Source: a virus. From it: 42,305 nt of DNA. The translations under genes and the position numbers were made by a program. How positions within the stretch are numbered: the first letter of the stretch is position 1; each line of letters begins with the position of its first letter. The stretch lies in the UHGV virus genome UHGV-0118819. One strand, 5' to 3'. The notes beneath the pieces are model-generated. The model was not told where the DNA came from, made no database searches, and saw only the letters and a list, made by a program, of their open reading frames with translations. Shown here one piece after another: positions 2,366-40,199 of the stretch.

Positions 2366-2440
2366 GGGTCAGTCGTATAAAGGTCATTACGGAAGGCTGT
2401 TAACCTTCTTATCGTGGTTCGAGTCCACGCTGTCCCGCCA
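2366..2440 (+). tRNA. tRNA-like gene, anticodon GUU (Asn); possibly degenerate
   Basis: Hand-folded cloverleaf: perfect anticodon stem GAAGG/CCTTC, loop CTGTTAA, T-arm CGTGG-TTCGAGT-CCACG, 3' CCA; one mismatch each in acceptor and D stems. Confidence 0.5.
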
Positions 2441-2445
2441 AACAT

Positions 2446-2521
2446 GCTGGTTTAGCTCCAATGGTAGAGCAGTCGCCTTGTAAGCGAATGGGTAGCGGTT
2501 CAAGTCCGTTAACCAGCACCA
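2446..2521 (+). tRNA. tRNA-Thr (anticodon UGU)
   Basis: Hand-folded 76-nt cloverleaf: 7-bp acceptor stem GCTGGTT/AACCAGC, D-arm GCTC..GAGC with GG, anticodon loop CTTGTAA, T-loop TTCAAGT, encoded CCA. Confidence 0.8.
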
Positions 2522-37421: not shown

Positions 37422-37700
37422 ATGCAACTTACAAGTACTCGCAAGAAAGCGAATGCAATTACAAGCAACATCCTGAATCGAATTGCTGTACGTGGTCAGC
37501 GAAAGGTTGCCGACGCGTTAGGGATTAATGAATCGCAAATTTCGCGATGGAAAGACAGCTTCATCCCCAAAATGGGAATGCTTCTGGCTGTTCTTGAATG
37601 GGGTGTTGAAGACGAGGAGTTGGCGGAACTGGCTAAGAAAGTAGCCAGAATGCTGACAAAAGAAAAAGCCCCGAAGAACGGCGAATTCTTCGAGGCCTGA
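37422..37700 (+). CDS. cII: CII-like transcriptional activator
   Basis: 92 aa from ATG 37422 (AAGGA RBS); core ESQISRWKDSFIPKMGMLLAVLEWGVEDEELAELAKKVARMLT close to recalled lambda CII. Confidence 0.8.
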   Translation: MQLTSTRKKANAITSNILNRIAVRGQRKVADALGINESQISRWKDSFIPKMGMLLAVLEWGVEDEELAELAKKVARMLTKEKAPKNGEFFEA

Positions 37701-37734: not shown

Positions 37735-37896
37735 ATGACAAAACGTCGTAAGAAATACCAGGAAAAAGAAGAGATTCGACACCCTGATTCACCTGAGGGA
37801 TTAGTGGTAGCCGCAGCAAATAACAGGGCGTTCGCAGAGCGCCTTGTTGGTGTTTACAGACTAGCCAAAGCAGGAGTGAAACATGGGCGTCGTTAA
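37735..37896 (+). CDS. small basic ORF (53 aa) between cII and O
   Basis: Own translation MTKRRKKYQEKEEIRHPDSPEGLVVAAANNRAFAERLVGVYRLAKAGVKHGRR; AGGAG RBS; below ORF-track threshold. Confidence 0.35.
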   Translation: MTKRRKKYQEKEEIRHPDSPEGLVVAAANNRAFAERLVGVYRLAKAGVKHGRR

Positions 37897-37945
37897 GTTA
37901 GCTGATTACAGGCATAACCCTGTACAACATCAGGAGGCATCCAGT

Positions 37946-38773
37946 ATGGGGTATGTCTCTATACACCGCCAGTTTATGGACAGCAGGCTCTATAAGGACT
38001 CTCAGGCAGTACATCTTTGGCTTCACTTAATCCTCAAGGCTAATCACGAATCTACTGTCGTCAATACGGATATCGGTCCGATAACTGTTGATCGCGGTCA
38101 GATGATAACTGGACGCCCGTCGCTGGTCAGAGAAACATTCATCCCCGACAACAAAGTTCGGAGCTTATTACGGACTTTTGAGTCGAAAGGGATGCTTAAT
38201 ATTTGCTCGATGGGGAAGAAATTTAGCCTGTTTACAATCGTTAAATATGACGATTTTCAGGCAAAAAATTGTCCAACGGTTGTCCAACGGTTGTCCAACG
38301 CAAACACCAGTAATGGCGCTGCTCTCAGCGGAGATTGTCCAACGGTTGTCCAACGATTGTCCATAAACAATAATATAAATAATATCTCTAATACTGACGT
38401 ATTAGAGAGTGCCACAGCAGACAAAAAGTCTGACAAGAAAAAACCTTCCGTCAGCTGTCAGGATGTTGTCGATGCTTACCACGAAATCCTTCCTGAAGCG
38501 CCAAGAATCCGCGCACTGAATGACAAGCGTAAAAACCAGATCCGAACGTTCTGGCGCAAAGCCGGAGTGATAACCCGCCAGCTTGACGGGCATGGGTTCA
38601 CGATGCAGGACTGGAGAAATTATTTGAGCTACGTAGGCGAAAATTGCCGATGGATGTTCGAAGAACGCCCAAACCATCAACGCGGAACCGTCTGGCACAA
38701 AAAGGGATTTGATTTCCTGCTTAACGACAATACCTACCTGAAAGTTCGTGAGGGTGAACACGATGACCGATAA
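37946..38773 (+). CDS. replication initiator (O-like) containing origin iterons
   Basis: ATG 37946 with AGGAGG RBS (ORF-track start 37883); iteron DNA translated as NCPTVVQRLSN...DCPTVVQRLSINNN. Confidence 0.7.
   Translation: MGYVSIHRQFMDSRLYKDSQAVHLWLHLILKANHESTVVNTDIGPITVDRGQMITGRPSLVRETFIPDNKVRSLLRTFESKGMLNICSMGKKFSLFTIVKYDDFQAKNCPTVVQRLSNANTSNGAALSGDCPTVVQRLSINNNINNISNTDVLESATADKKSDKKKPSVSCQDVVDAYHEILPEAPRIRALNDKRKNQIRTFWRKAGVITRQLDGHGFTMQDWRNYLSYVGENCRWMFEERPNHQRGTVWHKKGFDFLLNDNTYLKVREGEHDDR
38269..38410. repeat. origin of replication: six 11-bp iterons (TTGTCCAACGG) in two clusters plus AT-rich region
   Basis: Iterons at 38269-38301 and 38335-38367 followed by AATAATATAAATAATATCTCTAATA. 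Confidence 0.65.
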
Positions 38774-40199
38774 TTTTTATGCGCCGCCCCATAGCATCGA
38801 GGCAGAGCAGGCGGTGATTGGTGGATTGCTTCTGGATGATGACAGCAGTGAGCGCGTCCAGAAAGTTCTGGCGATGCTGAAGCCTGATTCATTTTACAGT
38901 CGACCACACAAAATCCTTTTCGAAGAAATAACCAGAATGCACCGTGAGCAAAAGCCAGTAGATGGCCTGACGCTTTTCGATGAACTGGAGCGTAAATCGT
39001 TAACGGCGTCTGTTGGCGGTTTTGCTTATATCGCTGAGATCGCAAAGAACACGCCAAGCGCAGCAAACATCGTTGCCTATGCAATGCAGGTTCGTGAAAC
39101 CGCAATGGAACGCTACGCCATCAACCGCATGACTGAAGCGACGGAATTGCTCTATTCCCGCAACGGAATGACTGCAACGCAGAAGTACGAAGCTATTCAG
39201 GCGATTTTCACGCAACTGACAGACCATGCAAAAACCGGATCGCGTCGCGGCCTTCGCTCATTTGGTGAGGTCATGGAAGACTGGGTTAGCGACCTTGAGA
39301 AGCGATTTGACCCGTCAGGCGAACAACGAGGAATGAGCACAGGGATCCCATCGCTGGACAGGATGCTGTCACCGAAAGGTCTGGTGAAAGGCTCTCTGTT
39401 TGTCATTGGCGCTCGCCCTAAGATGGGGAAAACGACGCTATACAGCCAGATGGCAATCAACTGCGCAGTGCATGAGAAAAAGCCCGCTCTGATGTTCAGC
39501 CTTGAAATGCCAGGTGATCAGATACTGGAAAAACTGGTAGGACAGAAGTCAGGTGTTAACCCGAATATTTTTTACCTTCCGGCGACAAATGACGCTGATG
39601 ACGGCTATCAGGGTGATTACGATGGTGACTTCAATAGGGCGATCGAAACAGCCAATCGCTTGAGTGAAATCGACCTGCTTTACATCGACGACACGCCGGG
39701 ATTATCTCTGGCTCAAATCGTCAGCGAAAGCCGTCGAATCAAGCGAGAAAAAGGATGTGTTGGGATGATTCTGGTCGATTACCTGACACTAATGGCCGCT
39801 GAGAAGGCCGATCGTAACGACCTTGCTTACGGCATGATCACCAAAGGACTGAAGAACCTTGCCAAAGAGCTTGATTGCGTTGTTGTGCTTCTGACGCAGC
39901 TTAACCGCGCACTGGAAAGCCGAACCAATAAACGCCCATTACCAAGTGACTCACGAGATACAGGGCAGATTGAACAGGATTGCGATTATTGGGTTGGGAT
40001 CCATCGTGAAGGTGCTTTTGATGACAGTGTTCCACCTGGTGAAACCGAACTAATCCTTCGTCTCAATCGTCATGGCAATACCGGTACGGTGTATTGCATT
40101 CAGGCAAATGGCGCTATTTATGACACAGACCAACAGTCTGCTGAAATTCGCCGCCGTGAACGCGAGGAACCGCAGTCCAAGAAGAAAGGAGGATTCTGA
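38763..40199 (+). CDS. replicative DNA helicase (DnaB-like)
   Basis: 478 aa from ATG 38763; Walker A GARPKMGKTT; DnaB-like N-terminal IEAEQAVIGGLLLD. Confidence 0.9.
   Translation: MTDNFYAPPHSIEAEQAVIGGLLLDDDSSERVQKVLAMLKPDSFYSRPHKILFEEITRMHREQKPVDGLTLFDELERKSLTASVGGFAYIAEIAKNTPSAANIVAYAMQVRETAMERYAINRMTEATELLYSRNGMTATQKYEAIQAIFTQLTDHAKTGSRRGLRSFGEVMEDWVSDLEKRFDPSGEQRGMSTGIPSLDRMLSPKGLVKGSLFVIGARPKMGKTTLYSQMAINCAVHEKKPALMFSLEMPGDQILEKLVGQKSGVNPNIFYLPATNDADDGYQGDYDGDFNRAIETANRLSEIDLLYIDDTPGLSLAQIVSESRRIKREKGCVGMILVDYLTLMAAEKADRNDLAYGMITKGLKNLAKELDCVVVLLTQLNRALESRTNKRPLPSDSRDTGQIEQDCDYWVGIHREGAFDDSVPPGETELILRLNRHGNTGTVYCIQANGAIYDTDQQSAEIRRREREEPQSKKKGGF

Follow-up and report, generated by a model that had tools for sequence, protein, structure and literature searches.

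The stretch of DNA analysed here (the window) comprises 42,305 nucleotides of the UHGV virus genome UHGV-0118819 and contains a gene for a replication initiator, the 3' end of which is overlapped by 11 nt by the reading frame of a DnaB-like replicative helicase (Table 1). No other ORF lies between the two, and a separate loader gene of the G39P kind is absent. Upstream of the initiator lie genes for a cI-like repressor, cro and cII and a conserved ORF of 53 aa, and the Pfam matches obtained in the region are to a Peptidase_S24/HTH_3 repressor, Cro, Phage_CII, DnaB and DnaB_C. This gene order agrees with that of phage Sf6 and with the cI-cro-cII-oop early-right context, and the genes around the initiator make up a lambdoid early-right operon.

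Within the initiator gene, at nt 387-485 and directly after the part encoding the N-terminal domain, lie six head-to-tail units of 11 bp with the consensus TTGTCCAACGG, arranged as two triplets; direct reading of the sequence, repeat finding, a pattern search and TRF agreed on their positions. From the start of one cluster to that of the next is 66 bp (6 x 11), and an AT-rich tract begins within the last unit of the second. Thus the two clusters of three direct repeats and the AT-rich tract following them, which the original prediction had placed inside the initiator coding sequence, were all recovered. The prediction had also described the last copy of each cluster as degenerate. Both last copies do differ from the consensus, and that of cluster 2 retains only the first 7 nt of the unit, but the second copy of cluster 2 is off by one nucleotide as well.

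Table 1. Features of the initiator-helicase locus in window coordinates.
Feature	Position	Strand	Sequence or basis
Replication initiator gene, 296 aa, O-like by position	37883..38773	+	ORF; PHROG 345
N-terminal domain coding region (aa 20-127), presumed iteron recognition	37940..38263	+	BLASTP to SPP1 G38P
Iteron cluster 1 (3 x 11 bp)	38269..38301	+	
Cluster 1, iteron 1	38269-38279	+	TTGTCCAACGG
Cluster 1, iteron 2	38280-38290	+	TTGTCCAACGG
Cluster 1, iteron 3	38291-38301	+	TTGTCCAACGC
Inter-cluster spacer, 33 bp	38302..38334	+	
Iteron cluster 2 (3 x 11 bp)	38335..38367	+	Last unit overlaps AT-rich tract
Cluster 2, iteron 1	38335-38345	+	TTGTCCAACGG
Cluster 2, iteron 2	38346-38356	+	TTGTCCAACGA
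Cluster 2, iteron 3	38357-38367	+	TTGTCCATAAA
AT-rich tract, presumed DNA-unwinding element	38362..38400	.	79% AT
Perfect 10-bp inverted repeat, 4-nt loop	38385-38394/38399-38408	.	TCTCTAATAC tgac GTATTAGAGA
C-terminal domain coding region, presumed helicase recruitment	38420..38770	+	Similarity to P22 gp18 C-terminus; helical model
DnaB-like replicative helicase gene	38763..40199	+	PF00772, PF03796

The array is the only one of its kind in the window. A pattern search allowing up to one mismatch found no further iteron copy in the 42 kb, and the four matches found elsewhere in the window with two mismatches correspond to chance level. TRF reported no other period-11 array with a score above 50 in the window, and 200 second-order Markov simulations of it did not once produce three exact 9-mers at 11-bp spacing. 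In each cluster the units begin in codon phases 2, 1 and 0, so that one and the same 11-mer is read as three different peptides (together NCPTVVQRLSN). This out-of-frame periodicity locates the iteron signal at the level of the DNA and not in a repeated peptide. Promoter-like matches inside the iterons (TGGACA-18-GACAAT, minus strand) equalled the background in shuffled sequence and were discarded as noise.

The best 40-bp segment of the AT-rich tract is 82.5% AT, a value exceeded by no other segment of the two replication genes and ranking among the top 0.06% for the window. In the composition profile the GC fraction falls to 0.28 at 38350-38409, and this dip is all that is visible, the GC-skew profile around the locus having no informative switch. 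At the right edge of the tract there is a perfect inverted repeat of which the original prediction made no mention. As single-stranded DNA the resulting hairpin has a folding energy of -9.4 kcal/mol (z = -5.25), it is rated terminator-like on the minus strand, and no RNA family in Rfam matches the locus. The AT-rich tract is invariant between the window, Sf6 and phage ST160, and in ST160 the hairpin stem is kept with a single change in the loop.

The initiator protein matches PHROG 345, 'replication initiation O-like', with E = 5.8e-85; its N-terminal part also matches PHROGs 2514 and 186, and PHROGs named 'DnaD-like helicase loader' are among the matches. Residues 20-127 align with residues 2-112 of SPP1 G38P (BLASTP E = 8e-13), and a tblastn match to SPP1 gene 38 concurs. 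In contrast, the initiator has no match to PF04492 (Phage_rep_O) at E <= 0.01, the family matched by both lambda O (5.7e-36) and P22 gp18 (6.9e-38), and BLASTP against lambda O gave E = 4.6, that is, no detectable similarity. No informative family was obtained from Pfam, in which DUF7376 stayed below threshold, or from NCBIfam, which gave no match, and a profile search of PDB sequences with the initiator returned nothing relevant. An AlphaFold2 model based on an alignment of 11 close homologs was poor (mean pLDDT 57.7), with values of 50-70 in the N-terminal domain, below 50 in a linker (aa 122-188) that is predicted to be disordered, and about 80 in a helical C-terminal domain. Foldseek found no significant match to this poor model in the PDB (best E = 0.47), and the winged-helix proteins that made up the weak top matches were not counted as evidence. 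The C-terminal domain has weak similarity to the C-terminus of P22 gp18 (E = 2e-4). Judged by these alignments, the N-terminal domain is related to SPP1 G38P and not to lambda O. The designation of the protein as an O-like initiator in the original prediction therefore stands for its position and role but not for the descent of its DNA-binding domain.

Close relatives of the gene are found in Sf6 and a number of other phages. Over 891 bp it is 99% identical in nucleotide sequence to Sf6 gene 43, and the same figure applies to the O genes of HK75 and mEpX2; it is 99% identical also in Huey, HK633, HK106, mEp234, HK629, IME10 and others. The iterons align base for base with the annotated rep_origin of Sf6, in which the AT-rich tract and hairpin are identical, and iteron differences between the window and these phages are single nucleotides at unit positions 10-11 only. 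The virion genes of the window are of a different, myovirus-like type. GenBank record AF547987 (Sf6) places rep_origin 28385-28480 on exactly these repeats with the wording 'putative; repeat region reminiscent of the phage lambda origin; similar to phage HK620', and the record of phage L (MW013503) has a 'putative origin of replication' on that phage's own ATGTCCAACGG version, with the same layout. The feature is thus already known as a putative origin from the Sf6, HK620 and L records, and a search of the literature, by full text for the iteron sequence among other things, brought to light no experimental work on initiator binding or origin function with iterons of this type. With a homologous initiator carrying in-gene repeats, a DnaB-family helicase next to it and the early-right context, the window has the replication module of the HK022/Sf6/HK620 type, a module that we found in 372 of 5426 complete E. 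coli genomes.

One spacer and one cluster together make a 66-bp (22-aa) unit, the copy number of which varies among alleles. Genes with one (274 aa), two (296 aa) and three (318 aa) copies were found that are otherwise about 100% identical. Copy-number alleles occur among the IMG/VR loci (L069 and L067), the former on a 43-kb viral contig, and a one-cluster allele is present in S. flexneri 8401 beside an IS4 insertion, in what appears to be a degraded prophage. The isolated phages among the top matches listed have two clusters each.

The initiator has some 1600 homologs, and for those that we retrieved we recorded the sequence and layout of the units. In each of the retrieved genes, down to 30% amino acid identity, the corresponding part of the gene contains 3+3 units of 11 bp, the two clusters being set 66 bp from each other. 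The iterons are thus conserved in phages with homologous initiators, the opposite of what the original prediction had named as refuting it. The sequence of the unit changes in step with the N-terminal domain of the initiator: it is ATGTCCAACGG in L and ST160 (82% aa identity to the window initiator), TGTACCAGCAG / ATTACCAGCAA in HK022 / VT2-Sakai (66%), GTGCCAACAGA in Klebsiella phage phi6.1 (47%), TGTCCAGCCGA in Enterobacter phage CobraSix (42%) and TGCCAACAGAT / TGCCATCAAAG, also written TTGCCATCAAA, in Erwinia phage 59 (30%). This co-variation is as expected if iterons differing from those of lambda go with a distinct initiator specificity. Between the window and phage L, identity is 88-98% in the iteron and AT-rich region and 60-80% in the flanking N-terminal coding sequence. 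The core TGTCCAAC does not vary among 80 IMG/VR loci, in which changes are seen at unit positions 1, 10 and 11, these loci being mostly near-identical and so giving counts of alleles rather than a measure of diversity. Distant homologs that share the N-terminal domain alone also have in-gene tandem arrays of 11 bp directly after it, with about 5 units in Vibrio phage 1.085.O and at least 8, followed by an AT-rich run, in Staphylococcus phage SA537.

Comparison with the O gene of HK022 revealed a mosaic junction. Identity between the two is about 40-57% in the N-terminal domain and iterons and rises to about 100% from about 38363 rightward, a point inside the last iteron. Many E. coli prophages, those of O157:H7 strains included, match the window only from 38363 rightward (query position 214). 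The position of the junction indicates that the N-terminal domain with its iterons and the AT-rich tract with the C-terminal module are exchanged separately. Natural chimeras show the same partition (Table 2). Across these initiators, the iteron type goes with the N-terminal domain and the type of partner, helicase or loader, goes with the C-terminal domain.

Table 2. Domain combinations among phage initiators.
Initiator	N-terminal domain and iterons	C-terminal domain	Partner
Lambda O	PF04492; four 19-bp palindromic iterons	Lambda type	P
P22 gp18	PF04492; four such iterons, 20/24/23 spacing	Weakly like that of the window (E = 2e-4)	DnaB-like gp12
Window initiator	G38P-like; 2 x 3 x 11 bp	gp18-like	DnaB-like helicase
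Erwinia 59	G38P-like; 2 x 3 x 11 bp	Lambda O type (70% identity, E = 6e-63)	Lambda P (PF06992)

Several lines of evidence suggest that the iteron region is very probably the vegetative (theta) origin of a lambdoid phage or prophage of the HK022/Sf6/HK620 'initiator + DnaB-like helicase' type. We base this reading on the spread of the units over the three codon phases, the recurrence of the 3+3 layout, the co-variation of unit and N-terminal domain, the location of the mosaic junction at the last iteron and the existence of the chimeras; the homology to G38P, the maximum of AT content beside the repeats and the annotations made by the curators of the Sf6 and phage L records point the same way.

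Taking the observed anatomy, the repetition at DNA level, the co-variation with the N-terminal domain and the pairing of C-terminal domain with partner as a framework, and extrapolating from SPP1 and lambda for initiator binding, DNA melting, helicase loading and origin activity, we envisage that initiation might proceed as follows. Rightward early transcription from pR would supply the 296-aa initiator, the G38P-like N-terminal domain of which would bind the 11-bp units through their core TGTCCAAC. Since the units stand head to tail at about one helical turn, protomers would be aligned on about one face of the DNA, and the two arrays, 66 bp apart, would be gathered into a nucleoprotein complex; not all six units can be essential, since one-cluster alleles exist. 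On supercoiled DNA the complex would destabilise the adjoining AT-rich tract (38362-38400), and the C-terminal domain of the initiator would then bring the phage's own DnaB-like helicase to the opened DNA, after which host primase and Pol III would take over. The helicase-loading step is an extrapolation, since the SPP1 loader G39P is absent here. An origin placed in the stretch coding for the predicted disordered linker would leave the DNA signal free to evolve.

The initiator might instead bind the repeats mainly for purposes of control, whether by autoregulating the replication operon, by being titrated or handcuffed, or by blocking forks as at SPP1 oriR, with unwinding taking place elsewhere. 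G38P has been proposed to stall forks at oriR (PMC6316719), and a cluster number that ranges from 1 to 3 among alleles is what a dosage-type element would be expected to show. We nevertheless consider this improbable: the window has no second set of iterons, which leaves the array as the sole candidate binding site, and it is adjoined by the most AT-rich stretch of the replication genes, a pairing that is kept in homologs. Variation in whole 22-aa units is equally a feature of the view that the repeat is a duplicated linker peptide, present in 1-3 copies through unequal crossing-over and devoid of DNA function, and both the repeated peptide CPTVVQRLS(N/I) encoded by the 66-bp unit and the predicted disorder of the linker agree with it. 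However, the 11-bp periodicity is out of frame and yields three peptide readings per cluster, and homologs of 30-47% identity, as well as phages of Gram-positive hosts, show the same 3 x 11-bp grammar in sequences that are unrelated, which makes a purely peptide-level origin of the repeat very unlikely.

The mosaic junction with HK022/O157-type genes inside the last iteron could be taken to mean that the repeats serve mainly as a recombination 'boundary sequence' that helps lambdoid phages to swap replication modules. The same junction between the specificity module and the shared module would, though, result from selection for viable recombinants, and a boundary role leaves unexplained both the 11-bp grammar and its co-variation with the N-terminal domain; we give this explanation even less weight than the preceding one. 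That the units are bound by a host protein such as DnaA, and not by the phage initiator, is the alternative to which we assign almost no probability. In its favour we counted the sequence TTGTCCAAC, which we take to resemble loosely the DnaA box TTATCCACA with 3 mismatches. There is, however, no TTWTNCACA near the locus, the sole match in the window being at 163-171, and the units change with the phage N-terminal domain among phages of one host group, a change that a conserved host factor does not need. The reading of the units as DnaA boxes was rejected on these grounds.

The feature marks the probable replication origin of the prophage, which is useful for annotation and for phage-derived replicons, and it helps to predict which co-resident lambdoid prophages share a replication specificity and which differ. 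The value as a discovery is small, as the same DNA already carries a putative-origin annotation in public records. What the name 'O-like' hides is that the recognition domain and iteron grammar of a widespread enterobacterial module are of the SPP1 G38P and not of the lambda O lineage, and the chimeras represented by P22 gp18 and Erwinia phage 59, along with the one-, two- and three-cluster alleles, are ready material for relating initiator domains and iteron number to origin function. A broader proposal, which we put forward tentatively and regard as rather doubtful, is that tandem 11-bp arrays directly after a G38P-like domain might be a general, not yet formalised origin grammar of phages of Gram-negative and Gram-positive hosts, and that in the lambdoid group the 66-bp cluster would act as a copy-number cassette (3, 6 or 9 iterons) tuning origin strength or prophage competition. 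Such competition, if real, would be among co-resident prophages with a common initiator specificity.

Among well-studied systems, the window is to be compared with SPP1 and with lambda. G38P is the characterised origin-binding protein of SPP1 and binds the iterons ('AB boxes') of oriL, which lie inside gene 38 beside an AT-rich DUE; theta replication has been reconstituted in vitro on an oriL fragment of 356 bp (PMC5737612, PMC6316719). As in the window, the repeats of oriL are located in the gene just after the N-terminal domain and adjoin an AT-rich tract, and the partner helicase is of the DnaB family. The two systems differ in that the window lacks both a separate loader such as the G39P of SPP1 and a second site such as its oriR; in addition, the C-terminal domain of G38P is unrelated to that of the window initiator by BLASTP, and the sequences and arrangement of the repeats are different.

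With lambda the window shares its genomic position (cro-cII-oop-initiator-partner), a mid-gene location, at the inter-domain linker, of what in the window is the probable origin, and a two-domain logic by which the N-terminus would read the iterons and the C-terminus would recruit the helicase or its loader. In lambda a palindrome stands to the right of the AT-rich tract, and the order of elements (iterons, AT-rich tract, palindrome) is common to both. The ori-lambda architecture with another iteron sequence, as originally predicted, is accordingly present in so far as in-gene iterons are followed by an AT-rich tract at the linker between domains. The description does not extend to the iterons themselves or to the protein family: the lambda and P22 origins have four approximately 19-bp iterons with internal dyad symmetry and spacings of 20/24/23 bp (20-nt units), in contrast to the contiguous 11-bp direct repeats of the window, the initiator of which lies outside PF04492 and is unlike lambda O by BLASTP. 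The partner likewise differs, being lambda P in the one case and a DnaB-like helicase in the other.

Natural domain chimeras of the initiator were found in two comparison phages. In Erwinia phage vB_EhrS_59, a G38P-like N-terminus with 11-bp iterons is joined to a lambda-O C-terminus (70% identity), and the partner of this initiator is lambda-P. In P22 gp18, the N-terminus is that of lambda O and goes with four 19-bp iterons, whereas the C-terminus shows weak similarity to that of the window initiator; the partner of gp18 is DnaB-like.

The number of iteron clusters is itself polymorphic. The repeated unit is 66 bp (22 aa), comprising one cluster and its spacer, and the two clusters of the window span 38269-38367. 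One, two or three clusters give initiator alleles of 274, 296 or 318 aa, respectively, in genes that are otherwise ~100% identical, and alleles of 277/299 aa are also present in Salmonella. Every isolated phage among the top matches listed carries two clusters.

We also observed in-gene tandem arrays with the window's 11-bp period in distant homologs that share the N-terminal domain only, located directly after that domain in a Staphylococcus and a Vibrio phage; no clear 11-bp array was seen in a third such homolog, that of Shewanella phage 3/49.

Features of the window and of comparison loci (L numbers; coordinates beside them are locus-internal)
Feature	Position	Strand	Remark
tRNA-Asn (GTT) and tRNA-Thr (TGT) genes	2366-2521	+	two, adjacent; near left end of window
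Strong terminator-like hairpin	37666-37698	-	end of cII
33-bp sequence ACTGGATCAATCCACAGGAGTCATTATGACAAA	37710-37742		adjoins terminator-like hairpin
Conserved 53-aa ORF	37735-37896		PHROG 1331 (unknown function)
Perfect 10-bp hairpin	38385-38408		right edge of AT-rich tract
Erwinia phage vB_EhrS_59 initiator	L008 838-1788		natural domain chimera
P22 gene 18	L010 22489-23304		natural domain chimera
Cluster-number alleles	L011/L012 1886-2050; L014 1886-1919; L067; L069		loci used
Vibrio phage 1.085.O array	L096 1213-1267		11-bp period, in-gene
Staphylococcus phage SA537ruMSSAST97 array	L098 1227-1329		at least 8 units, then AT-rich run

The virion half of the window (3089-25000) is similar to that of E. 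coli phages of the myovirus type, among them vB_EcoM-689R2 (95.6% identity), and to that of Salmonella SEN34. The replication module (37883-40199) is common, at 99% identity, to podoviruses such as Sf6 and to other members of the lambdoid group, including HK75, HK633 and mEpX2. This combination of a myovirus-like virion half and a widely shared replication module is typical lambdoid mosaicism.

Upstream of the initiator, the 33-bp sequence matches the conserved oop-promoter/'boundary sequence' described in lambdoid phages (PMC3349717). Taken with the minus-strand terminator-like hairpin, this match suggests an oop-like antisense RNA. The 53-aa ORF, which overlaps the initiator start by 14 nt, is the counterpart of Sf6 gene 42 and HK97 gp53; a 48-aa ORF (orf48) occupies the corresponding position in P22, HK022 and phage L.

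Finally, the perfect hairpin beside the AT-rich tract, followed by TATTATTTAT, scores as intrinsic-terminator-like on the minus strand and is a candidate origin element, terminator, or both. Minus-strand terminators are annotated in the phage L record just downstream of that phage's putative origin, the first of them at about the same position as the window hairpin.
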